Source: Dehalococcoidia bacterium
GTDB lineage: Bacteria > Chloroflexota > Dehalococcoidia > Lucifugimonadales > UBA3495
Length of the DNA: 64,000 bases
Direction of reading: 5' to 3'
Assembly: GCA_963667675.1 (NCBI GenBank)
Contig: OY763929.1
Coordinates: 2,030,358-2,094,357 of the forward strand
Positions 19,270 to 31,110 of this stretch are shown piece by piece. Made by a program: the position numbers and the translations under genes. A model generated the notes under the pieces. The model had not been told where the DNA came from. It did no database searches and saw nothing but the letters and a program-made list of their open reading frames with translations. Each line of letters opens with the position of its first letter. Position 1 is the first letter of the stretch.

Positions 19270-20250
19270 TTAGATTAGCTCAAGGCGAACGGAACGGTAA
19301 GGCGGCTCATACAGCGTGCGGCAGGGCAACCGGGGCACTAGAGCATCCGGTTGAGGATTCTTTCCGAGTCGGCTTGGCTGAGGCCCAGGGGGCCGCCGGG
19401 CCAGCGCTCCTCCGTCTTCCAGCACCGGCTCCCGGCGGCGGAGGATGGACACCTCGTGGGTTTCATAGAACACGCCGGTGTATATCACGTCGCCCCAGAC
19501 CATGGCCTTCTCGCAGGCGGCGTACCAGTCCGTGGGGTCGTGGCCCTCGTCCTCCAGCTTTGTGACCCGCTCCTTGAAGAAGGGGTGCCCGTTGTCGTGG
19601 TTGAAGGTAACGCAGGGGCTGAAGATGTCCACCAGCGAAAAGCCGCTGTGCTGGATGGCTTGCTTGATCAGCCCGGTAAGGTGCCTCACGTCGCCGCTGT
19701 AGCCCCGGGCGATGAAAGTGGCCCCGTTCATAATCGAGGTGGTGATGGGGTTGGCCGGCAGTTCGACGGTGCCAAATGGAGTGCTCTTGGTCTTCATACC
19801 AAGGCGGCTGGTGGGGGAAGCCTGGCCGGTGGTGAGGCCGTAAATCTGGTTGTTCATGACGATGTAGGTCAGGTCCACGTTGCGGCGGGCGGTGTGGCTC
19901 AGGTGGTTTCCGCCGATTCCGTAGCCGTCGCCGTCGCCTCCGGTGGCGATGACGGTCAACTCGTGGTTGGCCATCTTGGCGCCGGTGGCGATGGGAAGCG
20001 ACCGGCCATGCAGGGTGTGCATGCCGTAGGCGTTGAAGTAGCCAGGCAAGTTGGACGAGCAGCCGATGCCGCTGACCACCAGGATTTCGTGGGGCTTGAG
20101 CCCCAGTTCGGCACAGGCCCGCTGCAGGCTGTTCAGCACTCCAAAGTCGCCGCAGCCGGGGCACCAGTCGGGGTCCACCGGACCCTTGAAGTCCCTGGCG
20201 GTCAACTCTACAACGGGTCTGCCGTGGGCCGCATCGAGGGTTGTTGTCAT
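19270..20250 (-). CDS. korB: 2-oxoacid:ferredoxin oxidoreductase, beta (TPP-binding) subunit
   Basis: CPGCGDFG and TGGDGDGYGIGGNH motifs. Lies directly downstream of the alpha subunit. The last ~50 aa look low-complexity, so the exact C-terminal extent is uncertain. Confidence 0.8.
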   Translation of the reverse strand: MTTTLDAAHGRPVVELTARDFKGPVDPDWCPGCGDFGVLNSLQRACAELGLKPHEILVVSGIGCSSNLPGYFNAYGMHTLHGRSLPIATGAKMANHELTVIATGGDGDGYGIGGNHLSHTARRNVDLTYIVMNNQIYGLTTGQASPTSRLGMKTKSTPFGTVELPANPITTSIMNGATFIARGYSGDVRHLTGLIKQAIQHSGFSLVDIFSPCVTFNHDNGHPFFKERVTKLEDEGHDPTDWYAACEKAMVWGDVIYTGVFYETHEVSILRRREPVLEDGGALARRPPGPQPSRLGKNPQPDALVPRLPCRTLYEPPYRSVRLELI

Positions 20251-20263
20251 ATCAAGGCCCTCC

Positions 20264-22042
20264 TCAGGTAACGACTTCTTGATAGGGAACGTAAATGTTG
20301 GTGTCGCCGGCGAGGTGCTCCAGCACTCCCTCTACGATGTGGTGGGGAACGAAGGGCTCGCCGTCGTACTTGCGAATGTGCCCGTCCACGGTGAACCCGG
20401 TCTCGCTGCGCAGGTAGCGGTGGAACTGGCCGGAGTAGCTATTCTCCACGATGATGGTACGCTTGCACTTGGAAAGTGTCTCGGTCACTGCGTCGGCATG
20501 AAAGGGGACCATCCACTTGATGGGCAGATGGTTGACCTTGACGCCTTGCTCCGCCAACTGGGCTATGGCTTCGTTAATCACCCCGTAGGTGGAGCCCCAA
20601 CCAACCAAAGTCACCCGGGCGTCTTCGGGCCCCTCCAGGCGAGGCGGGGCTATGTCGTCGAGAGCGGCCTTGAACTTGCGGGCGCGCTTCTCCACCATCA
20701 TCCGGCGCTTGTGGGGGTTGGTGAACTCGTCGCTGAGCAGCGTTCCGTCCTCGTCGTGCTCGTCGGTAGCGACCACGTGGACGTGGCCCTCAACACCGGG
20801 GATGGCCCTGGGCGAGATGCCGCTCTCGGTGTCCTTGTACCTCAAGTAGTCGTCGGCACCCAATGAATCAAGTATCAGCTCTCCCCGGTCGATTTCCGGG
20901 TGCAGGTCGACGTCGTCGGCGTCGACGCTGAACCGGCCCTCGGAAATCAGCAGGTCGGAAATGATGATGCCGGGGCACTGGAACTTGTCCACCAGGTTGA
21001 ACAGCTCCGGGACGGTATTGAAGGCGTCCAGGGCGTTGAAGGGGCCGACGATGAAACGCTCGAAGTCTCCCTGGCTGGCGCCCAGGGCTTGCCACAGGTC
21101 TCCTTGCTCGGTCTTTGTGGGCACCCCGGTGGACGGCCCGGCGCGCTGCACGTTGACGAACACGGCGGGGATTTCCATGATGCCGGCGCTGCCGATGGCC
21201 TCGGTCATCAGGGCGAAGCCGCCCCCTGAGGTGGCGCACATGGCCCGGCAGCCAGCGTGGGCCGCGCCGATGACCATGTTGGCGACGCTGATTTCGTCCT
21301 CGGCCTGCCGCACCATGATGCCCAGGCTCCTGGCGTTGGCCGCCATCCAGTGAAGGACTCCAGTGGACGGGCTCATGGGATAGGCGGCGTAGAACTTCAC
21401 GCCGGCGGCCGCGCCGCCCATGGCGATGGCCTCGTTGCCAGCCCACACGGCCAGCGGCTTCTCCCCGGTGGGCACGGCGCCAGGGAAGGCCTGGAAGTTG
21501 TCCATGGCATAGTCATAGCCTGCCCGGGCCACTGAGACGTTCTCGTCCACCGCCGCCTGGCCCTGGCGCTGGAACCGGAGCCTCAAGCTATCTTCCAGCA
21601 CCTGGAAGTCCAGCCCCAGCAGGGCCATGACGGCCCCGACGCCGACGGTGTTCTGGATTAGCCTGTTGCGGCTGCGGGTCAACTGGGACACGGGTATTGG
21701 GCAATAGTCCGGCGCATCGTTGCCGTCCGCCGGTTTGACCGTGTCGCTGTTGAAGACCACCCGGCTGCCGGGGCCCATGAGTCGCTGGTGCCGGTCCATG
21801 GTGTCCTGGTTCAGGCAGAAGAGCAGGTCCAGCTTGTCGCCGTGGGTGTGGATGGGGGCGTCGCTGACCCGCATGGTCAGGAATATGTGCCCGCCGCGGA
21901 TGATGGACTGGTAGGAGTTGTAGGTGTTGAGGTGGAGGCCGCGCCTGACGAAAATCCGGGCCAGCACGTCGCCGGGGGTGGCTATTCCCTGGCCCGCCTC
22001 TCCCCCGATGGCCATGGCAAAATCGAAAGTCCCGGAAGCCAT
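20264..22042 (-). CDS. korA: 2-oxoacid:ferredoxin oxidoreductase, alpha subunit
   Basis: 592 aa with typical KorA organisation. 13-nt gap to korB. Confidence 0.8.
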   Translation of the reverse strand: MASGTFDFAMAIGGEAGQGIATPGDVLARIFVRRGLHLNTYNSYQSIIRGGHIFLTMRVSDAPIHTHGDKLDLLFCLNQDTMDRHQRLMGPGSRVVFNSDTVKPADGNDAPDYCPIPVSQLTRSRNRLIQNTVGVGAVMALLGLDFQVLEDSLRLRFQRQGQAAVDENVSVARAGYDYAMDNFQAFPGAVPTGEKPLAVWAGNEAIAMGGAAAGVKFYAAYPMSPSTGVLHWMAANARSLGIMVRQAEDEISVANMVIGAAHAGCRAMCATSGGGFALMTEAIGSAGIMEIPAVFVNVQRAGPSTGVPTKTEQGDLWQALGASQGDFERFIVGPFNALDAFNTVPELFNLVDKFQCPGIIISDLLISEGRFSVDADDVDLHPEIDRGELILDSLGADDYLRYKDTESGISPRAIPGVEGHVHVVATDEHDEDGTLLSDEFTNPHKRRMMVEKRARKFKAALDDIAPPRLEGPEDARVTLVGWGSTYGVINEAIAQLAEQGVKVNHLPIKWMVPFHADAVTETLSKCKRTIIVENSYSGQFHRYLRSETGFTVDGHIRKYDGEPFVPHHIVEGVLEHLAGDTNIYVPYQEVVT

Positions 22043-22270
22043 AGAGTCCCTCCTTTGGTTCAGCGGGGAAACCGTTTGCGTTTGAAGATTCCGCCGCTGA
22101 GGAGCTCCCCGGCTTTACTTCAGGCGGAGCGCCGCCAGGCTGTGGGTGTGCCAACAACTTACCCTGCGGTCTAGCAACGCTCTCATTCCAGTTTACCACC
22201 CCGGACGCGGCGGGGATAGACGAGGACATTGTTGGATTGGCGGGTTTGGGGAGGGTGGGGGCGACGCACC

Positions 22271-23659
22271 CTACATGTGCAGGACGCGTCCCTGGGCGGA
22301 GAGGGCCGCCTCTTTTAGCATCTCGGACAGCGACGGGTGGGGGTGGACCGCCCAGCCCAACTCCAGCGTCGTGCCTTCCAGGAGCCTGGTCAGGGCCAGC
22401 TCGCCCAGCAGTTCGGTGACCTCCGGGCCGATCATGTGGCCGCCCAGCAGTTCCCCGGTGTGTTCGTCCGTTACCAGCTTGACGATGCCTTCAGATTCGC
22501 CCATGGCCAGGGCCTTGCCGTTGGCCTGGACGTTGAATGTCCCAACTTTGACCTCGTGTCCCTGCTCCCGGCCCTGGGCCTCGGTCAACCCGAAGCTGCC
22601 CACCTGGGGCTGGCAGTAGGTGGCCCTGGGCATCATGGCATAGTCCAGCGGCTGGGTCCCCAACCCGGCTATGCGCTCCGCCGCCAGGACGCCCTGGGCC
22701 GATGCCACGTGGGCCAGGGGCAACTTGCCCGTCACGTCGCCGATGGCGTAGACGCCCGGCGCCCCGGTCTGCATGTACTCGTCCACCGGGATGCTGTCGC
22801 CCTGGGTCGAGATTCCCACTGCTTCCAGGCCCAGATCTTCCACGTTGCCCCGGACGCCGCAGGCAACCAGGACCTTTTCGCATTCCAGGGCCGTTTCCTG
22901 CCCGTCCTTGTCCACCTTGACGGTCAAGCCGCCGGGCCCGCTGTCGACTCCGGTGACCCCGGCGCCGGTCACCACCTTGATGCCGCGGCGGGAGAAGCTG
23001 CGTTCCAGCAGCCGGCTGATGTCCTCGTCCTCGTTGGGGACCAACCGGGGCAGGAGTTCCACGACAGTGACGTACACGCCGTAGGTGTGGTAGAGATAGG
23101 CGAACTCTACGCCGATGGACCCGCCGCCCACGATCACTACCGACGACGGCAGCTGCTCCAGGGTGATGGCCTCCCTGCTGGTGATTATGTCAACCCCGTC
23201 CACGGGCAGGGCGGGCAGCGTCCGCGGCCGGGCGCCGGTGGCGATGATGATGTTGCGCGCCGATATCTCCGGTCCCTCCGGGGATACCTGGACTGCGCTA
23301 TTGCCCAGGAGCCTGCCCCGGCCTTGGATGTGCTCCACATTGTTCTTGCGGAGCAGGTAGCCAATGCCCCGGGTGTTGCGGCCGACCACCTTTCTGCTGC
23401 GCTGGACGGCCACCGAGTAATCGGCGACGAAGTTTTCGAAGCTAAACCCGAACTCGTCGGCCCGGTTCAGGTAGGAAAGGATTTCGGCGTTCTTCAGCAG
23501 CGCCTTGCTGGGGATGCACCCCCAGTTGAGGCACACCCCGCCCAGGGCCTCCTCCTCGATAACGGCCGCCTTCAGCCCCAGTTGCGCGGCCCGTATAGCA
23601 GCCACGTACCCGCCGGGGCCCGCGCCGATTACCGTTACGTCGTAGGTTGGTGTTGTCAT
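22271..23659 (-). CDS. lpdA: Dihydrolipoyl dehydrogenase
   Basis: GAGPGGY FAD motif, redox-active GGVCLNWGCIPSK and C-terminal HPHPSLSE interface motif. Confidence 0.9.
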   Translation of the reverse strand: MTTPTYDVTVIGAGPGGYVAAIRAAQLGLKAAVIEEEALGGVCLNWGCIPSKALLKNAEILSYLNRADEFGFSFENFVADYSVAVQRSRKVVGRNTRGIGYLLRKNNVEHIQGRGRLLGNSAVQVSPEGPEISARNIIIATGARPRTLPALPVDGVDIITSREAITLEQLPSSVVIVGGGSIGVEFAYLYHTYGVYVTVVELLPRLVPNEDEDISRLLERSFSRRGIKVVTGAGVTGVDSGPGGLTVKVDKDGQETALECEKVLVACGVRGNVEDLGLEAVGISTQGDSIPVDEYMQTGAPGVYAIGDVTGKLPLAHVASAQGVLAAERIAGLGTQPLDYAMMPRATYCQPQVGSFGLTEAQGREQGHEVKVGTFNVQANGKALAMGESEGIVKLVTDEHTGELLGGHMIGPEVTELLGELALTRLLEGTTLELGWAVHPHPSLSEMLKEAALSAQGRVLHM

Positions 23660-23720
23660 GGGTTGTTAGCCTGCGTTGTCCATGCCTGCCAGGGGGGGTT
23701 GTTTCCCCTGGGGGCGGGGG

Positions 23721-24383
23721 CTAGATTAGACCGTATTGGCGTAATTGTTCTACGACCATCCGCGTCGTTCCAGCGTAAGGAACTCTCCCAGTCATTAGTT
23801 CAATGAACGCCTGCCGCTCGGAAACCGAAAACTGCAATAGGTCGTGGCTGAATTTCCACGTCCATCGCTGCCGATAGTACATCACATCCAGCCGGTTTAG
23901 TCCCAAGTCACGGATGGTATCAGAGGCTCTGCGGCGAGCGGCCCCGGAAAGCCCATTTTTGGGCGCAATATACCCCGTATCAGCATCATAATCGAAATAC
24001 CGTTCAGGCCATTCCGCAACATCAGCAGCGCAAGGGTCAACATACCCACTATCCGGCCATTTGTCCTGCTTGTTTTCGTTATTGCAGCCGTAGCAACTGA
24101 AAACCCAGTTAGACCATTCGTAAGACAACCTAGGAAACCGGCTCAGGGGTCGGAAGTGGTCCACAGTGGGAGCGCGCCCTCCGTACTCTCCATCACACAA
24201 CCGCTCGCAGTACCAGCAGATGTTGTTGGTCCGGTCGCCCAGATCTACCCGGAACTCCCGCCAATAGAAATCATCAGGCCGCCCGCCAACCCCGTCTTCA
24301 AAGTAGTCCACCCAGCCCTGGGTGAACCGACGGGCGTATTCGGAAACGCCGCCGGGTTCCGGCCCCCGGTCAACCCAGCGCAA
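23721..24383 (-). CDS. HNH endonuclease, Septu PtuB-like
   Basis: CWYCE...TVDHFRP...N...CYGCNNENKQDKW (Cys4 HNH). Starts 5 nt after the ATPase gene. A/T-richer than the flanks. Confidence 0.7.
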   Translation of the reverse strand: MRWVDRGPEPGGVSEYARRFTQGWVDYFEDGVGGRPDDFYWREFRVDLGDRTNNICWYCERLCDGEYGGRAPTVDHFRPLSRFPRLSYEWSNWVFSCYGCNNENKQDKWPDSGYVDPCAADVAEWPERYFDYDADTGYIAPKNGLSGAARRRASDTIRDLGLNRLDVMYYRQRWTWKFSHDLLQFSVSERQAFIELMTGRVPYAGTTRMVVEQLRQYGLI

Positions 24384-24388
24384 TCCGG

Positions 24389-25729
24389 CTACTCTGTATC
24401 TTGGGTCAACTCGGATTGCCGGGTACGTAGAAATTCCTGCATCAAGTCCGCGTAGCGTTCCCGCTCTACTTCCAATGTGCCGCCCTTGGCCAGCAAATCC
24501 TTGTTTATCTGGCGGCGCAACTCGTTCAATTTCGACTCTTCATCGGGAGTCAACGTGTCCTTCTCGCGGAGCTGCCGCAACTGGTTGACACGGTCAACCG
24601 TAAGCTGGTCTGTCGGCTCGTCTACGCCCATCATTGTCCGTAGAATCTCGTCAGCGGTCCAGCCTATCACGTCCTCGGTGTTGGTACTCGCCGTGACTGC
24701 CCCATGTTCGTCCCGCTTCAGCAGATGCACCTGCCCGGCTTTCAGGCCGGCCACCACGAAGGGAGAATGGGTGGAGGCGAAAATCTGCAACTTTGGGAAA
24801 TGCTCCAGTAACGCCGGGATAACCCGTCTCTGCCACGTGGGATGCAGGTGGTTTTCTATTTCGTCTATTAGCAGAACCGCTGGCTTTTTCTCCCAGCCAA
24901 CAGCCCAATCGCAGTGGTGCGCCATCTTTAGCGCCAAAGCCCAGACCCATAATAGAGTGACTTGGGTCCCAGCACTCAGGGCGCCGGCATACAGCGGTTC
25001 GCTCAGATTATCGTCGGTCGTCCATATACCCATGTCATGATGGACAATCCTTCCCGTGTCACTAATCTCCCGTTCTTCATCCATCTCAACGTAGGGATGT
25101 GGACCGTCGTCATGGATTACCTCGGAGCAAATGCTCCTGGCACAAGAGTGGCCCACCTCCAAAGCCTTTCTGAATTGGCTTTGTTTGTTCCGATAACCGC
25201 CAAGTCTACGACGAATATAGTCTATGCCCTCTTCCAACAAAGCGCCATCGAAGCTGCCAATAGGATTTCTGAAATCAGTACGGAACACGTCTTCCAGGGA
25301 TTTCCAGTTAGGAGGATATGGTCGGTAATCCCCATCATCGTCCTTTTCATGCTCGTGGGATATTGTTTGATCAAAAATGTCCTGGGAAGGGAGGTTGACC
25401 CGAGTCGCAGGCACATAGAATAGTGACACCGTATCATCCGGGATCAATATTTCCGGTATTATTTCATCCAAGTCGTCGCGTGGCCAACCTTCGTTTAAGT
25501 CTATAGCGACAAACCCAACCGCGTTTTTGGAGTTGAAAACCAAGTCACCGTCACCAGCACCGAGTGCCCGCTCAAGTTTCCCAGACCACGCACTATTCAT
25601 TGCTCGTAGAATGGTGCTCTTGCCGGAGGCGTTGGGGCCGATGAACAGGTTCACATGTTCATCGCACTTGAAAGAAACGTATTTTGTTAAAGGCGGCAGT
25701 AGGTTGATTTCTAGCGACTTTATGTGCAC
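24389..25729 (-). CDS. ABC-like AAA_21-type ATPase, Septu PtuA-like
   Basis: Walker A GPNASGKST, signature-like LSAGTQ, Walker B LLIDEIENHLHP, H-loop ASTHSP and a C-terminal coiled-coil tail. Confidence 0.7.
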   Translation of the reverse strand: MHIKSLEINLLPPLTKYVSFKCDEHVNLFIGPNASGKSTILRAMNSAWSGKLERALGAGDGDLVFNSKNAVGFVAIDLNEGWPRDDLDEIIPEILIPDDTVSLFYVPATRVNLPSQDIFDQTISHEHEKDDDGDYRPYPPNWKSLEDVFRTDFRNPIGSFDGALLEEGIDYIRRRLGGYRNKQSQFRKALEVGHSCARSICSEVIHDDGPHPYVEMDEEREISDTGRIVHHDMGIWTTDDNLSEPLYAGALSAGTQVTLLWVWALALKMAHHCDWAVGWEKKPAVLLIDEIENHLHPTWQRRVIPALLEHFPKLQIFASTHSPFVVAGLKAGQVHLLKRDEHGAVTASTNTEDVIGWTADEILRTMMGVDEPTDQLTVDRVNQLRQLREKDTLTPDEESKLNELRRQINKDLLAKGGTLEVERERYADLMQEFLRTRQSELTQDTE

Positions 25730-25904
25730 TGCAATGACTCTTTAGTGGCCCGGTCTGTCGTCACGGCCAATACGCCCGACCTGTTAAGTATACCAACTCT
25801 GTTCCGGGCGGCTCAATGCCGTAACTACCTATCGCATCCCGATAGCGACAGCAACCGCAGTGTCCTTGGTTGACAATGGAGCGACACAATGTTATCGTTG
25901 TGTT

Positions 25905-26345
25905 GTGATACCACAGTCGGAGGTAAGCGGACTTCTCCCGCCGGGAATCCACTGGGCAACTTGGAGCGAATTTCTTGCCAGGTTCGGGACCAGTCCCTGG
26001 AGGCGACAGTTGGCCGCCGGCCTTAGAGCCGCAGCGGAGAACCTGAAGGAAGCCGGTTGCCATACGGTATACGTCAACGGGAGCTTTGTCACGAACAAAT
26101 ACGTTCCTAACGACTTCGACGCCTGCTGGGTTGAGGATGGAGTGGACCCACTTGTTCTTGACCCCGTTCTGCTGACGTTCGACCCTGGCAGAGTGACGCA
26201 GAAGGTCAAATATCTTGGGGAGTTGTTCCCGGCGTCGGCGATGGCAAGCGGAGACGGATTCTCGTTCCTGGAGTTCTTCCAAACCGATAAGGAAACTGGA
26301 AACCCGAAAGGAATAATCGCCATAAACTTGGGAGACTTGAGATGA
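25905..26345 (+). CDS. Minimal Pol-beta-fold nucleotidyltransferase-like protein (DUF6932-like), putative toxin
   Basis: LLPPGIHWATW..F N-terminus and NTase pattern GSFVTNKYVPNDFD (GS-x10-DxD). The ORF track starts at the GTG at 25860. I prefer the in-frame GTG at 25905, giving (M)IPQSEVSGLLPPGIH. The start is uncertain. Confidence 0.55.
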   Translation: MIPQSEVSGLLPPGIHWATWSEFLARFGTSPWRRQLAAGLRAAAENLKEAGCHTVYVNGSFVTNKYVPNDFDACWVEDGVDPLVLDPVLLTFDPGRVTQKVKYLGELFPASAMASGDGFSFLEFFQTDKETGNPKGIIAINLGDLR

Positions 26346-26776
26346 TAAAGAATGAAAGGCAATACAAGGTCACCAGGGCCCAGGCGGCGAAATTCTCGGA
26401 TGCCCTGAATAGTCTCAGGCAACGCACTGATGAGGAGGGCATACATCCGCTTATTGCCAAGGCCCAGGAGGATGCACTGAGCAGTCAACTGTCGGACTTG
26501 GAGAACGAGTTGCGCGAGTATGAGTCCCTGAAATCCGGGGATTTCCAGGTGGACTCGCTGGGGGTCGTCGCCGACCTGTCTTCAATCCTCATCAAAGCTC
26601 GGATCGCGCAGGGTTTGAGCCAGAGAGACTTGGCCGAAAGAATCGGAGTGAAGGAGCAGCAGATACAGCGTTACGAGGCGACGGACTACGCCTCGGCCAA
26701 TCTGGCCCGAATCAAGGAGGTGGCGGCCGTCTTCAGTGTGAAAACCGATAGTCCGGAGTCACCGCCAGAAGGCTGA
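26342..26776 (+). CDS. XRE-family HTH protein with N-terminal helical extension, putative antitoxin/regulator
   Basis: ATGA overlap with the preceding gene. C-terminal HTH (ARIAQGLSQRDLAERIGVKEQQIQRYE). Confidence 0.65.
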   Translation: MIKNERQYKVTRAQAAKFSDALNSLRQRTDEEGIHPLIAKAQEDALSSQLSDLENELREYESLKSGDFQVDSLGVVADLSSILIKARIAQGLSQRDLAERIGVKEQQIQRYEATDYASANLARIKEVAAVFSVKTDSPESPPEG

Positions 26777-26805
26777 TTGTAGCCGGGGCGCGCTTCTGCT
26801 ATGAT
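26777..26805 (+). promoter_or_regulatory. Sigma70-like promoter upstream of tatA
   Basis: TTGTAG (26777..26782), 17-nt spacer, TATGAT (26800..26805). Lies 42 nt before the tatA ATG. Confidence 0.4.
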
Positions 26806-26846
26806 GGCTCCGTTATCCACGCGGCGAATTCAACTAGAGGACCGAG

Positions 26847-27062
26847 ATGCCAAGAATAGGGCCTATTGGCCTACCAGAACTGCTGATAATCCTGGTCATA
26901 ATCCTGCTGATTTTCGGCGCCAGGAAGCTGCCGGAAATTGGCTCCTCATTGGGCAAGGGCATCAGGACCTTCAAGAGCGCCGTCACCGGCGAGGACGAAA
27001 AGGCCCGGGACGACCAGCAGCAGGCGGGCGGGAACCCCGGCGACGACGCCAAGCAGTCCTAG
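26847..27062 (+). CDS. tatA: Twin-arginine translocase TatA/E family protein
   Basis: 71 aa. [36 protein letters not shown] is the canonical TatA TM-plus-amphipathic-helix pattern. Confidence 0.9.
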
Positions 27063-27092
27063 ACTGCCAGCCTCCGGCTGTCCAGGCACTAA

Positions 27093-27124
27093 AGACCGGC
27101 CTACGCATGGCCGGTCTTGTTATT
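27093..27124 (+). terminator. Rho-independent terminator after tatA
   Basis: agaccggcc-tacgcat-ggccggtct (9-bp stem) followed by tgttatt. Confidence 0.7.
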
Positions 27125-27283
27125 CCCGGGGTGTGTGCCATGCCTTAGATTCCCGCTCGGATGGAATGGCGGGCTGGGGCATAGGAGCGACCGCGGCGCA
27201 TGGCCTTGGCACGCGTTGATGCCTGAAACGGGCCTTTGACAAGCTCCGGCCGAACGTGGGAGGGGCAGGTACAGGGCCCTTGC

Positions 27284-28054
27284 TCAATCAGAGTGGGGGA
27301 CTGGGGTGATAGACTTGGTGGCGTCACTGTCTCGGCCCCGGCTCCCCACGCGCACCAGCAGGATGCCCAGTTCGTACAGGGCGATCAGGGGCGCGGCGAC
27401 CAGGGCCTGGTTTACCGGGTCGAAGGTCGGAGTGATGATGGCCGCCAGGATGAAGGCAATCACGAACCAGTAGCGGCGGAAGCGGCTGAGCTTGTGGACA
27501 TTGACTATTCCCAGCAGGGCCAGCAGGTACATGACCAGCGGCGTCTCGAAGGCCAGGCCCATCCAGAACAGCAGCCTGACCATCAGGTTGACGATATTGC
27601 TGATCTTGATAAGGGGTACGGCCACGTCGTCGCCGAAGGTTAACAGGAAGTGCAGCGCCGGCGGGGTCAACACGAAGTAGCCGAAGGCCAGGCCCGCGGC
27701 GAAGCACAGCAACGCCCCCGGCAGGAAGGCCAGCAGATAGCGCCTTTCCTTGGGAGTCAGGCCCGGCGCCACGAACATGACGACCTGGTACAGGATGATG
27801 GGAAAGGCGATGATGAAGCCGGCGACGAAGGATACTTTGATGCTGGTGGTCAGCAACTCGGTGACCTCGGTGAAGACAATCTGACCGCCAGCGCCGGTTT
27901 CCAAGTCACGGGCCGGGCGAACCAGCACGTCGATGATCTCCCGGAAGAAGGCCCAGGAGACAGCGCTGCCTGCTAGTAGGGCCAGCACTGAGATGACTAC
28001 CCGCCGCCGGAGTTCGGACAGGTGCTGGAGCAGGGTCAGCTCGCGCTCACTCAT
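27284..28054 (-). CDS. tatC: Twin-arginine translocase subunit TatC
   Basis: LTLLQHLSELRRR start region and 6-TM pattern. ATG at 28054 overlaps the tatB stop by 8 nt. Confidence 0.85.
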   Translation of the reverse strand: MSERELTLLQHLSELRRRVVISVLALLAGSAVSWAFFREIIDVLVRPARDLETGAGGQIVFTEVTELLTTSIKVSFVAGFIIAFPIILYQVVMFVAPGLTPKERRYLLAFLPGALLCFAAGLAFGYFVLTPPALHFLLTFGDDVAVPLIKISNIVNLMVRLLFWMGLAFETPLVMYLLALLGIVNVHKLSRFRRYWFVIAFILAAIITPTFDPVNQALVAAPLIALYELGILLVRVGSRGRDSDATKSITPVPHSD

Positions 28055-28304
28055 CTCCGGCCTTGGTGTCCGTTTTCGTGTCTTGGGAATGCGTTGGCTT
28101 GGAATCTGGAGGTTCCCGTCGCCGCTCGGACTCCTGCTGCTCCAGGCTGGCCGCCTCGGCAACCTCGTTGAAGGTACGGCGCAGGTTGCTCAAGAACTTG
28201 CCCGCCGACCGCGCCGTGGATATGGACCGGCCGGGCCCCAGCACCAGGAAGGCGACCAAGAAGATGACCAATATCTCCAGGAGGCCGACGCCCATGAAGT
28301 TCAC
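28047..28304 (-). CDS. tatB: TatA/TatB family protein
   Basis: GLLEILVIFLVAFLVLGPGR, an amphipathic helix, then an acidic tail. ATGA overlap with the upstream fusion ORF. Confidence 0.8.
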   Translation of the reverse strand: MNFMGVGLLEILVIFLVAFLVLGPGRSISTARSAGKFLSNLRRTFNEVAEAASLEQQESERRREPPDSKPTHSQDTKTDTKAGDE

Positions 28305-30139
28305 GGCTGGCCCCCGTTATTGGGACAGCTTGGGCCGCATTCTCCCGGCGCGGGGGCGGTCTTCCAGTAGGTGGTGTCGCACCCCAGTCGTTCCAGCATC
28401 TGCTCCGCCAGGCACAAGGGCAAGCCGACAATGTTGCTGTAGCAGCCGTCCCACGACTCTGCCGGGCGCAGGGTCTGGTCCTGCACCCCGTAGCCTCCGG
28501 CTTTGTCCAGGGGAGCGCCGGACAGGACGTAGGCCTCCAGTTCCTCGTCGGAGAAGTTACGCAGGGTTATGTCACTGATCATCGCATCGGTCAGGATGCG
28601 CCCGGAGGCGGCGTCGATAACGGTGACGCCGGTGGTCACCTGGTGGCTAGTGCCCCTCAGCAGCCGCAGCATCCTGCGGGCGTCGTCGGCGTCTTCTGGC
28701 TTCCCTAGTGATTCTCCGTTTAGGACTACGGTGCTGTCGGCAGCCAGGATGTAGCCGTAGTCCATCCGGCTGGCCGCCGCCTGGGCCTTGGCCTGGGACA
28801 GGCGGGCGGTCATTTCCTGTGGCGATTCCCCGGCCAGGCTGTCCTCCGCCACGTCCGCCGGCATCACTTGAAAGCTCACCCCCAGGCCAGCCAGAAGCTG
28901 CCGCCTTCTGGGCGACGCCGAGGCCAGCACCATCGGGGCGGACGCTGCGGCGCGCTCTAGGAACGCGACGCACTCAACGTGGTGGGTCTGGGGAAACATG
29001 TCCAGCGGGACCACCTGCTTTAACGTGTAGTCGCTGTCGCAAAGGGGCTTCAGGTCCCGGGCCATGGTCTCGGCGTCGCAGGAAACGTAGGCCACCCGCG
29101 CCGGGGCAAGCTCTAGCAAGTTGTCCAAGGCTTTGGGTTGGCATCCGGCCCGGGGCGGGTCCAGCACCACCGCGTCGGGCTGGGCGTCCAAGCTGCCCAG
29201 GACTTCCTCGGTCCTGCCCAGCACAAACTCCAGATTGGGCACGCCAGCGGCATTGGCCCGGCAGTCGGCCACCGCCGCCGAGGACTCTTCCACCGCTACG
29301 ACCTTCTTGACGTGCGACGCCAGCAGGATGGCGAAGGCGCCAACCCCGGTGTAGGCGTCCAGCAGCACGTCATCCTGAGTCAACCGCAGGCCGCGGCGCA
29401 CCACCTCCGCCGCCTGGGCCGCCTGTTCCACGTTCACCTGGAAGAACGAGGGAGACGAAACCCGGAAGGTCTTGCCCGCCACAGAATCGGCGTAACTCTT
29501 CTGCCCGGTGGGAATGGTTATGTCCGGGTTGAACAACCTGGGCTGCACCAGGACATCGCCGGTCTCTTGACCAGCCCGCACCGAAAGCTGGGTGGTCTCC
29601 CAGCACTTGCCCTGGAGTTGGCCCAGGCATTCGTTGATTGCCCCGTGCATGATCATGCAGCGGTCGATGTCGACAAAGCGCCGGGAGGCCCGGTTGACGA
29701 AGCCCAGCACACCGCCGTCCCTGACGGTGAACCTGGCGTGGTTGCGGTAGTTCAGCTGGCGAGGGGACGGAATCACGGCGGCGACGGGAGGGTCGGTAAA
29801 TTGACCAATTCGCTGCAGCGCGTCGATGACCCTCTCCCGTTTGGTATCCAGTTGGTGCCTGTAACTGATATGCAGCCACTGGCAGCCGGTGCAGTCGCCG
29901 AAATAGGGGCACGGGGGTTCTACGCGGTGCGGCGACGGCTCCAGCACCTCCACCACCCGCGCCGCCAGCCGCCTGCGGCGAATGTCCACCACCTCGGCCA
30001 CCACCCTCTCGCCGGGGATGCCGCCGAAGACGAACACGTCCCACCCGTCATGGCAGGACATGGCTTCGCCCAGCCGGCCCCACGCGGTCAGTTCCAGGAC
30101 GAGCTTCTCGCCGACGACGGGTTTCACTGCTGTTGACAT
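28301..30139 (-). CDS. Fusion protein: RumA/RlmD-type 23S rRNA (uracil-C5)-methyltransferase + Maf nucleotide pyrophosphatase
   Basis: One uninterrupted 612-aa ORF. N-terminal part has TRAM, the Fe-S motif CPYFGDCTGC, SAM motif DAYTGVGAF and catalytic YVSCD. C-terminal part has LASASPRRRQLL and DKAGGYGVQ (Maf). Confidence 0.8.
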   Translation of the reverse strand: MSTAVKPVVGEKLVLELTAWGRLGEAMSCHDGWDVFVFGGIPGERVVAEVVDIRRRRLAARVVEVLEPSPHRVEPPCPYFGDCTGCQWLHISYRHQLDTKRERVIDALQRIGQFTDPPVAAVIPSPRQLNYRNHARFTVRDGGVLGFVNRASRRFVDIDRCMIMHGAINECLGQLQGKCWETTQLSVRAGQETGDVLVQPRLFNPDITIPTGQKSYADSVAGKTFRVSSPSFFQVNVEQAAQAAEVVRRGLRLTQDDVLLDAYTGVGAFAILLASHVKKVVAVEESSAAVADCRANAAGVPNLEFVLGRTEEVLGSLDAQPDAVVLDPPRAGCQPKALDNLLELAPARVAYVSCDAETMARDLKPLCDSDYTLKQVVPLDMFPQTHHVECVAFLERAAASAPMVLASASPRRRQLLAGLGVSFQVMPADVAEDSLAGESPQEMTARLSQAKAQAAASRMDYGYILAADSTVVLNGESLGKPEDADDARRMLRLLRGTSHQVTTGVTVIDAASGRILTDAMISDITLRNFSDEELEAYVLSGAPLDKAGGYGVQDQTLRPAESWDGCYSNIVGLPLCLAEQMLERLGCDTTYWKTAPAPGECGPSCPNNGGQP

Positions 30140-30466
30140 ACCTGGCCCTACTATACTTTAACCCGTTCCCCAAGCCAAGAAAGGCCCATACCGGTGACCT
30201 CATGTCTTTCCGAGCGATGCCGAAGAATCCAAGCGCCGCGCCTTTTCCATGACGCATCGGATTCTCCCCATCCTCCCGGGTTACTGACACATGGCCCTTG
30301 CGCCGAACCGTGGGTCAGTCATACCATCTAAGTGGTTCCTAATTGACGCGCGATAAAGGAAGCGGCCGCCGCATCCCGCCGGACAGCTAACGACCCAACA
30401 ATCCTGGAAATGTCTCAGAAACATCGGCTCCTACCGCCTCGGCAGCCCAACCTGGCAACCGCACAA

Positions 30467-30496
30467 ATGTCCCAGAATGTCCCAAGATGTCCCAGC
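30467..30496. repeat. Three tandem 10-bp repeats ATGTCCCA(G/A)N upstream of trxA
   Basis: atgtcccaga/atgtcccaag/atgtcccagc at 30467, 30477 and 30487. A related atgtctcag lies at 30410. Confidence 0.8.
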
Positions 30497-30658
30497 AACA
30501 CGAAAAGGCCCCCCGGCCTACCGCACCCGCCGGCTAGGGGCGGCCGCAAGTTGACCCTATATTTGAAGGGGTATACACTGGTTTGAAAGTCCTACGAAGC
30601 CCGGCCCATCGCCGGACATCTAAACTCAATGGACTCCCCTGGTGGTTTGGAGGCAGAA

Positions 30659-30988
30659 ATGGCGGAACCCGTCGAGGTAACTGAATCTAACTGGGACGAC
30701 ACGGTGCTCAACTCGGACGTGCCGGTGCTCGTGGACTTCTGGGCCGAGTGGTGCGGCCCCTGCAAGATGATTGCTCCGACCGTCCATGAAATGGCCGTCG
30801 AGTACGACGGGCAGTTGAACGTGGGCAAGGTCGACGTGGACAGCAACCCCAACATCGCCATGAAGTACGGCGTGCGCAGCATTCCCGCCTTGATTTTCTT
30901 CAAGGACGGCAAGCCGGTGGACCAGATCGTGGGGGCCGTGCCCAAGGGAGTGCTCCAGAAGAAAGTGGACGCGGTGTTGACCGGCTAA
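30659..30988 (+). CDS. trxA: Thioredoxin
   Basis: WAEWCGPCK active site. GGAGG lies 5 nt upstream of the ATG at 30659. Confidence 0.9.
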   Translation: MAEPVEVTESNWDDTVLNSDVPVLVDFWAEWCGPCKMIAPTVHEMAVEYDGQLNVGKVDVDSNPNIAMKYGVRSIPALIFFKDGKPVDQIVGAVPKGVLQKKVDAVLTG

Positions 30989-31009
30989 CAGTCTCTGAGT
31001 CCGTGTCGG

Positions 31010-31106
31010 GGGAGTGGATAGGGCCCGGTGGCCCTTGCGGACTTCAAATCCGTTATGCCTCGTGACGAGCGGGGTAGGTGGGTTCGACTCCCTCGCACTC
31101 CCGCCA
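31010..31106 (+). tRNA. selC: tRNA-Sec (anticodon UCA)
   Basis: 97 nt. Acceptor GGGAGTG/CACTCCC, discriminator G and encoded CCA. 6-bp D-stem AGGGCC/GGCCCT with 4-nt loop CGGT (a tRNA-Sec hallmark). Anticodon loop CTTCAAA, long variable arm and T-loop TTCGACT. The layout parallels E. coli selC. The 8th acceptor pair and one T-stem pair are mismatched in my hand fold. Confidence 0.8.
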
Positions 31107-31110
31107 ACTA

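Follow-up and report, generated by a model that had tools for sequence, protein, structure and literature searches.

The window, the whole 64,000-nucleotide stretch of Dehalococcoidia DNA analysed here, contains two small overlapping genes on the forward strand, divergent from a Septu pair. The features of the region are listed below.

23696..25808, reverse strand: Septu insertion, separate from the two-gene module (PADLOC, NCBIfam and Pfam; absent from collinear relatives)
23721-24383, reverse strand: ptuB (PADLOC, E 1.3e-20)
24389-25729, reverse strand: ptuA (PADLOC, E 1.8e-38)
25870..25875, forward strand: -35 hexamer TTGACA (promoter scan)
25884..25903, no strand assigned: putative 20-bp palindromic operator ACACAATGTTATCGTTGTGT (ACACAA-N8-TTGTGT), overlapping the -10 element and stopping 1 nt short of GTG 25905
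25890..25898, forward strand: extended -10 element (TGtTATCGT), nested in the operator spacer (promoter scan and conservation)
25905..26345, forward strand: gene 1, nucleotidyltransferase (NTase)-like, DUF6932 family, 146 aa from GTG 25905
26330..26335, forward strand: Shine-Dalgarno-like GGGAGA for gene 2, within the 3' end of gene 1, conserved across loci
26342..26776, forward strand: gene 2, the partner, 144 aa, with a C-terminal XRE helix-turn-helix (HTH)
26342..26566, forward strand: N-terminal domain of the partner, residues 1-75 (MIKNERQY...EYESLKSGDF), putatively NTase-binding or neutralising
26567..26776, forward strand: XRE-family HTH of the partner (residues about 84-136) and a short C-terminal tail, with no peptidase domain

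A first-pass annotation of this DNA had described two genes joined by an ATGA overlap, the second encoding 144 aa. The open reading frames confirm this, as the ATG of gene 2 (26342-26344) overlaps the TGA of gene 1 (26343-26345), and independent gene calls agree on products of 146 and 144 aa. The gene 1 product had been given as ~147-161 aa. Its frame is indeed open from GTG 25860. The start preferred in that annotation, GTG 25905, is the correct one and gives 146 aa, the commonest length among the homologues, and ATG or GTG stands at the aligned position in 77 of 81 loci. The 161-aa form from GTG 25860 was ruled out, since the start aligns at 25905. The apparent protein conservation upstream of it (TQCYRCV, included in some database calls) is really that of a DNA palindrome and promoter. 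Both genes are under purifying selection (dN/dS 0.08-0.30). An exact-sequence look-up of the window protein returned no record.

Gene 1 belongs to the Pfam family DUF6932 (PF22014), with an E value of 7.7e-37 and 127.3 bits against a cutoff of 27. The match spans profile positions 4-142 of 142. All 98 diverse relatives of gene 1 match the same family in a Pfam scan, and the family comprises 2991 clusters at 50% identity, with more than 581 hits in GTDB representatives. DUF6932, named in the first-pass annotation as a profile to check, is confirmed, and so is the conserved NTase-type GS...DxD motif; the spacing is GS-x9-DxD (G59-S60-x9-D70-F-D72) and not GS-x10-DxD as first written. Over the 98 diverse members G59 and S60 are conserved in 99%, D70 in 100% and D72 in 97% (with Glu in a further 2%), and position 106 is acidic in 98% (Glu 78%, Asp 20%). 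Gene 1 therefore carries the Pol-beta motif hG[GS]-x9-13-Dh[DE]h, and the core strand that follows supplies a third acidic residue. Its AF2 model (pLDDT 96.6) has the canonical order of helix, strand, GS, strand (DxD), helix and strand (E106), with E106 on strand 106-109. The dN/dS of gene 1 is 0.08-0.20.

Foldseek was run against the PDB with two models of gene 1 and also against BFVD. The ranking was consistent, and the top 50 matches were mostly MNT, MntA, Pol beta/mu/lambda, TdT, ANT, AadA and CCA-adding enzymes. Nearly all top matches are Pol-beta-superfamily NTases, yet with E values of at least 0.067 and TM scores of at most 0.36, so the structural check proposed in the first-pass annotation gave NTase-like matches, none of which was significant in the PDB or BFVD. 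Single-sequence and profile searches of PDB sequences returned no match. NTase Pfam families were found in 0/98 relatives at E up to 1. The HMMs of MNT (NTP_transf_2/Polbeta) and of AbiEii/MenT (DUF1814) did not match gene 1 at E up to 0.1, which removes it from both families by sequence, and hhalign of the family profile against a shallow MNT profile (two MNT sequences from the loci) was insignificant (P 0.55). One 'AbiEii' label (AAA_21) in the Pfam scan belongs to PtuA and not to gene 1. In its motif and model, gene 1 fits a divergent Pol-beta-type nucleotidyltransferase with putative NTase activity, an assignment that is not statistically established.

MNT/MntA (HEPN-MNT) and AbiEii/MenT (DUF1814) have the GS...DxD Pol-beta motif in common with gene 1. 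MNT is of similar minimal size and, like MntA, ranks near the top of the fold matches, although gene 1 has no sequence or profile similarity to MNT or AbiEii. The partner here is an Xre HTH protein, not a HEPN protein or AbiEi. The gene order of AbiE is opposite to that of the DUF6932 pair, and MntA is an antitoxin, unlike the role proposed below for DUF6932. A literature search found no paper that mentions DUF6932. The first-pass annotation had called this a small NTase family with no demonstrated function to its author's knowledge. The family is not wholly unflagged: the window gene 1 weakly matches PDC-M63A of PADLOC (E 6.7e-10; Tolypothrix, 2.2e-16). PDC-M63 (A+B) is a computational candidate, and in its sole published test no phage phenotype followed deletion of PDC-M63AB from E. 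coli NILS69. No PDC-M63B match was found among the partners with PADLOC.

The partner contains an HTH_3 domain at residues 84-136 (Pfam, E 1.5e-10). Together with the ATGA overlap this agrees with the earlier description of a C-terminal XRE HTH behind an N-terminal extension, tightly coupled in translation to gene 1. The N-terminal domain of about 75 aa is kept in short and long partners across phyla. It is putatively helical, and its dN/dS is 0.11-0.30, compared with 0.08-0.13 for the HTH. The RmrA and PD-Lambda-2_B profiles align from the HTH onward only and leave this domain uncovered. In many relatives the partner is long: the same N-domain and HTH are followed by a Peptidase_M78 (ImmA/IrrE) domain with an HExxH motif, and such partners are RosmerTA RmrA-like or PD-lambda-2B-like. 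These Xre-ImmA/IrrE partners had gone unnoticed in the first-pass annotation. The window partner is of the short form without peptidase, which is the majority form in 80 loci. Upstream of gene 2, positions -11 to -8 (G G A G) of the Shine-Dalgarno site are 84-98% conserved in 81 loci, the conserved form being GGGAGG. No conserved Shine-Dalgarno site was found for gene 1 in the same 81 loci.

The promoter scan of the window recovered TTGACA, a 17-nt spacer and TATCGT (25893-25898) with a TG extended -10, the same element (25870..25898) from which a nearly leaderless transcript had been proposed. It is conserved in about 80 loci as TTGACA-N17-TATnGT, and it holds the palindrome. A TTGACA upstream of the -10, with one mismatch allowed, is spaced from it by 17 nt in 45/81 loci and by 16-19 nt in 61/81. 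The -10 hexamer ends 6 nt before GTG 25905, and the mRNA of gene 1 is therefore predicted to be leaderless. The palindrome is perfect in 56 of the 81 loci and has one mismatch at most in 72. Its spacer is 8 nt in all loci, while the flanking intergenic DNA is unconserved; within the operator frame, conservation is 91-100% at T9, A10 and T14. The start codon follows 1-2 nt past the palindrome in 78/81 loci. The palindrome occurs once in the 64-kb window, against 0.05 occurrences expected. In 924 kb of related loci it occurs 71 times, every time at the NTase start, and no further operators were found near neighbouring genes. Comparable palindromes are present in cyanobacterial and alphaproteobacterial relatives. 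With the promoter conserved and the palindrome finishing 1-2 nt short of the start codon, gene 1 probably has a leaderless mRNA that the partner would repress by binding this operator.

The earlier annotation had taken consistent pairing with an HTH gene as a test of the module. The partner lies directly downstream of the gene 1 homologue in 80/80 genomic relatives, the two genes overlap by ATGA or GTGA in 81/81 loci, and in each of the 11 plasmid relatives examined the overlapping partner has this N-domain and HTH core too, in a short (172 aa) or a long (414-487 aa) version. The flanking genes differ widely from locus to locus: 309 neighbour proteins fall into 245 clusters. Two copies of the module occur in one genome (L060/L061) and likewise in one MAG (L020/L024). 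The module is found in several phyla, on conjugative plasmids and as Tn7-like cargo; it occurs on plasmids and beside resistance genes in Acinetobacter. In some long-form relatives it is joined by DUF4186 and a radical-SAM gene in a larger operon. A tblastn search of 50,697 phage records gave no module match and a scan of IMG/VR gave two weak viral loci only; the module is not typically phage-borne. The two-gene cassette is thus real and mobile, and its gene structure, family, pairing and motif conservation are established.

Disrupted copies were also seen, and they bear indirectly on whether one product is toxic and the other neutralises it. In two loci the NTase is interrupted by in-frame nonsense mutations and the partner is intact. 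In L024 and L062 the NTase is intact and the HTH of the partner is frameshifted, a combination that is awkward for a potent toxin; it would be tolerable if the retained N-domain suffices, or if the frameshifts are assembly errors.

As described before, a divergent Septu pair lies about 175 bp away within an A/T-richer stretch: ptuA and ptuB are separated from the NTase start by a gap of 175 bp, and GC is 0.48-0.59 across about 23600-26800 compared with 0.61-0.69 in the flanks. The functional link to Septu that this proximity had implied is not supported. If the pair were an accessory of the neighbouring Septu acting with PtuA/PtuB, as the short divergent spacing and the common low-GC stretch might suggest, the two should travel together. 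In the collinear loci L001 and L002, however, the module is kept at the same lpdA/tatA site without Septu, lpdA abuts the module, and the Septu segment (23696-25808) is a 2.1-kb indel. PtuA/PtuB homologues within 6 kb of the module were found in 0/80 loci. This reading is effectively refuted, and we give it almost no chance. No convincing target-site duplications or inverted repeats were found at the ends of the Septu indel. The module is independent of Septu, and the islet represents two independent acquisitions at one chromosomal site.

Defence genes lie within about 5 kb of the module in a sizeable minority of loci, including Septu in the window and, in relatives, Tiamat TmtA, mad2/type IIG-like genes, Cas3, NACHT, a CBASS cyclase, Cas8c, HEC-01, Hhe and others. 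The defence neighbourhood suggested earlier therefore holds in that defence genes are frequent nearby, but the direct neighbours are mostly housekeeping genes. Distal genes about 4 kb off are also rich in defence matches, which supports an island context and does not serve as a true background. Downstream of the module in the window and its closest relatives are the housekeeping genes tatA/tatC.

One recognised TA/defence class consists of an upstream toxin paired with an Xre(-COG2856) protein (Makarova 2009; Millman 2022; NetFlax node D25). In RosmerTA (RmrT toxin and RmrA Xre-ImmA/IrrE antitoxin), a single kind of antitoxin serves a variety of unrelated toxins. The present module shares with this Xre-COG2856 class the order of a small effector gene followed by an overlapping Xre-HTH partner, and the association with mobility and defence is common to both. 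The HTH and Peptidase_M78 architecture is exactly matched by the long-form relatives. The window partner differs in having the HTH only (144 aa), so that the Xre-M78 fusion is absent from it; RmrA profiles match just its HTH (residues 83-136) at 27 bits or less and do not cover the extra N-domain of about 75 aa. DUF6932 matches no RmrT model.

PD-lambda-2 (Vassallo 2022) consists of a HigB-like A, an Xre-peptidase B and C. Its B is the one relative of the long partner that has been tested; this Xre-peptidase proved to be toxic and was neutralised by the upstream gene. PD-Lambda-2_B has clear homologues in the long partners of Agrobacterium and Acinetobacter (E about 1e-75), and in PD-lambda-2, as in the long-form relatives, a small upstream gene overlaps the Xre-peptidase gene. 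Here the upstream gene is DUF6932 instead of a HigB-like gene and the C component is absent. The PD-Lambda-2_B profile leaves the N-terminal 70-85 or so residues of the partner unaligned and does not match the short partner of the window. MqsR/MqsA and HigB/HigA have the toxin-first order of the proposed module. In MqsA, the N-terminal part binds the toxin and the C-terminal XRE HTH recognises a palindromic site within the antitoxin's own promoter. The partner shows a weak TIGR03830 MqsA-family match over the HTH only, far below the family cutoffs, and its N-domain is without zinc-binding CxxC motifs. The putative toxin here is NTase-like and not an RNase.

The pair has the gene layout of a type II TA system: two small co-oriented overlapping genes that are co-inherited, patchy and mobile, and sometimes multi-copy. 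The enzyme-first, TA- or Abi-like organisation recognised earlier is correct in this respect. We tentatively propose, at somewhat less than an even chance, that the pair is a self-contained, horizontally mobile, autoregulated toxin-first type II TA or abortive-infection module. Transcription would begin from a sigma-70-type promoter with an extended -10, on or immediately beside the gene 1 GTG, and yield a leaderless mRNA. The product of gene 1 would be the effector or toxin and would nucleotidylylate a cellular or phage target, using D70, D72 and E106 as predicted catalytic residues with the G59-S60 loop. The N-domain of the partner (about 75 aa) would bind and neutralise the NTase, and a dimer of its XRE HTH would bind ACACAA-N8-TTGTGT over the -10 and start site and switch the operon off. 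The partner is probably made in excess, because it is translationally coupled (ATGA) yet has a strong Shine-Dalgarno site of its own. In long partners the ImmA/IrrE (M78) peptidase is plausibly the trigger sensor. As the window partner has no peptidase, release of the NTase would depend on turnover or titration of the partner. The NTase activity, the toxicity, the neutralisation by the N-domain, the operator binding and any part of the pair in phage defence are inferred.

The polarity of the pair could also be reversed, since PD-lambda-2B is itself toxic and its upstream gene neutralises it. The DUF6932 NTase would then neutralise or modify the partner or a third factor, and the short pair would be a largely disarmed regulatory remnant. 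There are precedents in MntA, an NTase that AMPylates the toxin HepT, and in PD-lambda-2A, which neutralises the toxic PD-lambda-2B; MntA is among the structural matches of gene 1, the Agrobacterium and Acinetobacter long partners match PD-Lambda-2_B with E values of 7e-75 to 7e-78, and L024 and L062 keep an intact NTase beside an HTH-frameshifted partner. The window partner, however, has no peptidase and so no obvious toxic activity. Purifying selection nevertheless acts on both genes, and most of the 80 loci have the short form. A nonsense-mutated NTase with an intact partner, as in two loci, better fits loss of a toxin, and a leaderless gene 1 followed by a gene 2 with a Shine-Dalgarno site favours excess partner, the usual logic of a second-position antitoxin. 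We consider reversed polarity unlikely. The same small chance is given to an accessory enzyme that is not toxic and has a repressor of its own, for instance an ANT/Lnu-like modifier or a nucleic-acid repair or tailing enzyme that would be switched on by stress (e.g. DNA damage) through the Xre(-ImmA/IrrE) repressor, with no TA relationship. ANT(4'), AadA, AAD(9) and Pol X are among the fold matches, the module occurs on plasmids and adjoins resistance genes in Acinetobacter, ImmA/IrrE-type proteases are classically damage-responsive, and both the mostly housekeeping neighbours and the larger DUF4186 and radical-SAM operons of some long-form relatives point the same way. On the other hand, the universal 4-nt overlap and the co-inherited partner-specific N-domain suggest protein-protein control and not transcription alone, the NTase is just 146 aa and has no ANT-type substrate-binding C-domain, and the multi-copy, patchy, cross-phylum spread with frequent defence neighbours is more TA- or defence-like.

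The pair might instead be a defence-island regulatory cassette (CapH/CapP- or BrxR-like) that controls a downstream defence gene, with the NTase as sensor or signal generator. In L007/L010 (TmtA, E=0), L044 (Cas3) and L008 (NACHT) the module is indeed followed, after 33-340 nt and in the same orientation, by a large defence gene, and at least eight loci have a gene for a 940-970-aa Eco57I/mad2-like protein at this distance and in this orientation; loci with a downstream defence gene are spread over at least four clades of the NTase tree. The partner HTH weakly matches capH, and no terminator was predicted after the partner gene in the window. Against this, tatA/tatC follow the module in the window and its closest relatives, the neighbours in most loci are unrelated or on the opposite strand, and the operator is confined to the module's own promoter throughout the 924 kb. 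We regard this as improbable, even more so than reversed polarity or an accessory enzyme.

The toxin-first reading could be extended to the whole family. DUF6932 may be a new widespread class of minimal NTase effectors, restrained by an N-terminal adaptor on an Xre repressor, whose release aborts infection; we hold this possible but rather doubtful. Release would occur through the ImmA/IrrE protease sensor in the long form or through partner decay in the short form, and the freed NTase would nucleotidylylate a host or phage target. If true, the defence islands of Chloroflexota, Cyanobacteria and Proteobacteria would harbour an abortive-infection or defence family with a new mechanism. If the toxin-first model is right, DUF6932 would join the few NTase toxins and effectors (MenT/AbiEii, CD-NTases, MntA) as a new family. 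It would also offer a clean system for studying the control of effectors by Xre(-ImmA/IrrE) partners, with a 20-bp operator, a leaderless promoter, a separable adaptor domain, and natural short and long (sensor-bearing) partner forms. The two independent acquisitions in one "Septu + accessory" islet matter for how neighbours in defence islands are interpreted. Homologues are experimentally tractable because the family resides on clinically relevant mobile elements, as in Acinetobacter, where the module is carried as Tn7-like cargo adjoining blaNDM-1.

The two-gene module consists of gene 1, a DUF6932 gene encoding a putative nucleotidyltransferase (NTase), and gene 2, its XRE-HTH partner. Both lie downstream of a divergent PtuA/PtuB pair, as listed below in window positions.

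23721-24383, divergent upstream: PtuB, by profile matches
24389-25729, divergent upstream: PtuA, by profile matches
25870-25875, plus strand: -35 box TTGACA, from the promoter scan
25884-25903: palindrome ACACAA-N8-TTGTGT, covering the -10 box
25893-25898, plus strand: -10 box, with TG at 25890-25891
25905..26345, plus strand: gene 1 (DUF6932), 146 aa from GTG 25905, stop codon at 26343-26345
26342..26776, plus strand: gene 2 (partner), 144 aa, its ATG overlapping the gene 1 stop codon (ATGA)

The reading frame of gene 1 is open already from GTG 25860. However, 146 aa is the length of most among 3026 database homologues, and the codon equivalent to GTG 25905 is ATG in 54 and GTG in 23 of 81 aligned loci, which backs the start preferred in the first-pass annotation; GTG 25905 is thus the predicted functional start. 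Independent gene calls in public assemblies gave the 146 + 144 aa pair again. Gene 1 matched Pfam DUF6932 (E 7.7e-37), one of the profiles proposed for checking it, and PADLOC candidate PDC-M63A weakly (E 6.7e-10), while the NCBIfam search returned no name. A PDC-M63 system has been tested just once, by deleting it in E. coli NILS69, and no phage phenotype resulted. DUF6932 is mentioned in no paper. Gene 2 carries a C-terminal XRE HTH (HTH_3, residues 84-136, E 1.5e-10); its N-terminal ~75 residues had no family match in the profile search. The two ORFs, the overlap and the HTH were as first described, except that the GS-x10-DxD spacing was off by one and is GS-x9-DxD. The observation of a two-gene pair was therefore confirmed, while its interpretation was only partly supported.

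One genome per species was scanned for relatives; at least 581 were found and the best 80 loci were analysed. These are mostly from Dehalococcoidia MAGs, with others from Latescibacterota, Gemmatimonadota and Caldilineaceae. The partner lies directly downstream of gene 1 in 80/80 of these best loci, and the ATGA or GTGA overlap is present in 81/81 loci. Using tblastn, 29 plasmid records were found (Cyanobacteria, Rhizobiales, Rhodobacterales, Acinetobacter), with an overlapping partner downstream in all 11 relatives examined, so in the loci examined NTase homologues are consistently paired with an HTH gene, as anticipated. Both genes are under purifying selection, with dN/dS of 0.08-0.20 for the NTase, 0.11-0.30 for the partner N-domain and 0.08-0.13 for the partner HTH.

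The DUF6932 family forms 2991 clusters at 50% identity (E up to 1e-3). Across 98 aligned, diverse members (38-61% identity to the window protein), the residues of the Pol-beta signature hardly vary (G59 and S60 99%, D70 100%, D72 97% with a further 2% E), position 106 is acidic in 98% (E 78%, D 20%), and R33, K135, G136, F125 and Q126 are also conserved. An AlphaFold2 model built with this alignment (pLDDT 96.6, pTM 0.91) has a long helix 31-49, strand 54-58, the GS and a short helix, followed by strand 72-75 with the DxD, helix 95-103 and strand 106-109 with E106, a predicted order that is that of the canonical NTase core. The top 50 Foldseek entries from the PDB are nearly all Pol-beta-superfamily enzymes, including the minimal NTases 2rff, HI0073 (1no5) and 1ylq, as well as MntA, Pol beta/mu/lambda, TdT, Cid1, ANT(4'), AadA, AAD(9) and the CCA-adding enzyme. 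No Foldseek match was significant (best E 0.067, TM <=0.36; the first model behaved alike). Searching the PDB by sequence and by profile with the gene 1 product gave nothing, and in Pfam none of the 98 members matched an NTase family. Because motif, model and fold ranking favour an NTase, yet no fold or profile match is significant, the gene 1 product is likely, but not proven, to be a divergent Pol-beta-type NTase; the earlier assignment is borne out in its conserved GS...DxD motif. Membership in MNT or AbiEii/MenT, for which profile checks had been proposed, was rejected by sequence, and hhalign with a shallow MNT profile as target found no significant match.

Most plasmid partners are long (414-487 aa), with the same N-terminal domain and HTH followed by an ImmA/IrrE Peptidase_M78 domain with HExxH; the partner at L076, a Dehalococcoidia locus, is long as well (485 aa). 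The Oscillatoria and Calothrix plasmids encode a short 172-aa partner with 35% identity to that of the window over N-domain and HTH. The window partner is itself the short form, without the sensor domain. The Agrobacterium and Acinetobacter long partners match PADLOC PD-Lambda-2_B (E about 1e-75), and the remaining partners match RmrA models of RosmerTA weakly. Since relatives pair with such partners, the module falls into an established class, "small upstream gene + Xre(-COG2856)", TA-like by prediction since 2009 and represented experimentally by RosmerTA and PD-lambda-2. The RmrA and PD-Lambda-2_B profiles align from the HTH onward and leave uncovered the ~75-aa N-domain common to every DUF6932 partner, which we infer to be a DUF6932-specific adaptor or neutralising domain. 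DUF6932 is thus an uncharacterised NTase-like family within a known Xre(-ImmA/IrrE) TA/defence class, and the module makes a good candidate for experiments, tractable but not surprising. What is distinctive here is the dedicated putative adaptor domain and an unusually well-defined predicted leaderless promoter-operator.

Across 81 loci the upstream intergenic DNA is unconserved apart from the TTGACA box and a TAtnGT -10 box 17 nt away. The -10 box is nested in the 20-bp palindrome, which 56/81 loci carry without mismatch and 72/81 with no more than one, always with an 8-nt spacer; the start codon follows 1-2 nt past it in 78/81. Since the -10 box ends 6 nt before GTG 25905, the gene 1 mRNA should be leaderless, in line with the nearly leaderless transcript first proposed. 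In contrast to gene 1, gene 2 has a conserved GGGAGG-type Shine-Dalgarno sequence, embedded in the gene 1 3' end, and on the simplest reading gene 2 is translated more efficiently than gene 1. The palindrome occurs once in the 64-kb window. Similar palindromes, ACACAAC...GTTGTGT and ACAAC...GTTGT, precede the genes of cyanobacterial and alphaproteobacterial relatives. The simplest reading is that the HTH protein would bind a putative operator over the -10 box and start site and autorepress the operon.

Our tentative interpretation, held at slightly less than an even chance, is a toxin-first module of TA/Abi type that regulates itself. The effector would be the DUF6932 NTase, the partner N-domain would neutralise it, and HTH binding of the operator would repress the operon. 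In long forms the M78 peptidase would be the likely trigger sensor, while in the short form of the window activation would hinge on partner turnover. Reversed polarity, in which the NTase modifies or neutralises its partner like MntA or PD-lambda-2A, is rather unlikely, and a non-toxic enzyme that stress induces and a repressor of its own controls is improbable to the same degree. A regulatory cassette for downstream defence cargo is less probable still: several related loci have a recognised defence gene as the next gene on that strand, but the operator is found solely at the module's own promoter (71 occurrences of the pattern in 924 kb of loci, every one at the gene 1 start).

A role as Septu accessory is effectively refuted. 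PtuA and PtuB are genuine and share with the module the A/T-richer islet noted at first (GC 0.48-0.59 over 23.6-26.8 kb vs 0.61-0.69 in the flanks). However, the window is collinear with related locus L001 at 20000-23695 and 25809-31109, and the intervening 2.1 kb with ptuAB (23696-25808) is 67 bp in L001 (5838-5904), L002 being similar; the pair therefore occupies the same lpdA/tatA site with or without Septu. The link implied at first thus gives way to a separate indel, and 0/80 of the best loci have a PtuA/PtuB homologue. At the indel, neither a clear target-site duplication nor clear terminal repeats were evident. On the minus strand, 25816-25787 resembles a promoter for ptuA.

The genes around the module itself vary widely (309 flanking proteins fall into 245 clusters) and are mostly housekeeping. 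In L007 (6901-11409) and L010 (7039-11577) a Tiamat TmtA gene (PADLOC E = 0) follows the module on the same strand after 43-181 nt. A 940-970-aa Eco57I/mad2-like methylase gene does so after 33-79 nt in at least 8 loci (L012, 6907-9819, and at least 7 similar), which represent at least 4 NTase-tree clades. Cas3 in L044 and a NACHT NTPase in L008 likewise come directly after the module on its strand. Genes ~4 kb away, intended as control, also gave strong matches (mad3, type IIG RM, CBASS cyclase, Cas8c, HEC-01A, MzaC, Hhe, PD-Lambda-5_B and others). These findings indicate that the module often resides in defence islands; the anticipated enrichment is suggestive only, because the ~4-kb genes are no proper genome-wide background. 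From phage records the module was all but missing.

As a sign of mobility, one genome (L060 and L061, both on OZ253578.1) and one MAG (L020 and L024) each carry the module twice. Degenerate copies were also seen: in L039 and L064 the NTase is interrupted by in-frame stop codons (31 and 44 aa) and the partner is intact, and in L024 and L062 a frameshift disrupts the partner HTH, with the N-domain retained and the NTase intact. Such copies may reflect genuine decay or mistakes in MAG assembly. In A. baumannii pAC1633-1 (L083, NZ_CP059301.1 70046-71766) a DUF6932 + PD-Lambda-2_B-like pair is cargo directly past Tn7-like tnsD/tnsE, just upstream of IS30, blaNDM-1 and ble. Agrobacterium pAt1D1460 (L082) and Sinorhizobium terangae (L092) both have a 'Beta protein' (PF14350) gene after the module, together with a convergent sce7726-family gene; in the former, AAA ATPase, helicase and reverse-transcriptase genes precede the module. 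A larger conserved cluster, in the order DUF6932, long N-domain/HTH/M78 partner, DUF4186 and radical-SAM protein, was seen in a Dehalococcoidia MAG and in Tolypothrix, Nostoc, Roseovarius and Rhizobium plasmids (L076, 6001-11885; L081, L084, L087, L089) and may be an uncharacterised multi-gene system. In L076 two further ORFs of 427 and 175 aa and an AAA_17 kinase-like ORF join the cluster. Only weak matches were obtained for the radical-SAM protein (pVip, 4e-5) and the kinase (VakA, 3.8e-5). In two ENA metagenome assemblies (L093-L100) an identical NTase, P0100, lies on 19 contigs at a fixed site beside a peptide ABC transporter, with strain-variable small ORFs directly downstream, and in L096 a 1474-aa SACS/DEAD-helicase gene, which suggests a flexible islet. 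In the window, a 612-aa ORF at 28301-30139 (minus strand) resembles, by eye, a fusion between an RNA methyltransferase and a C-terminal Maf-like domain (…MVLASASPRRRQLL…).
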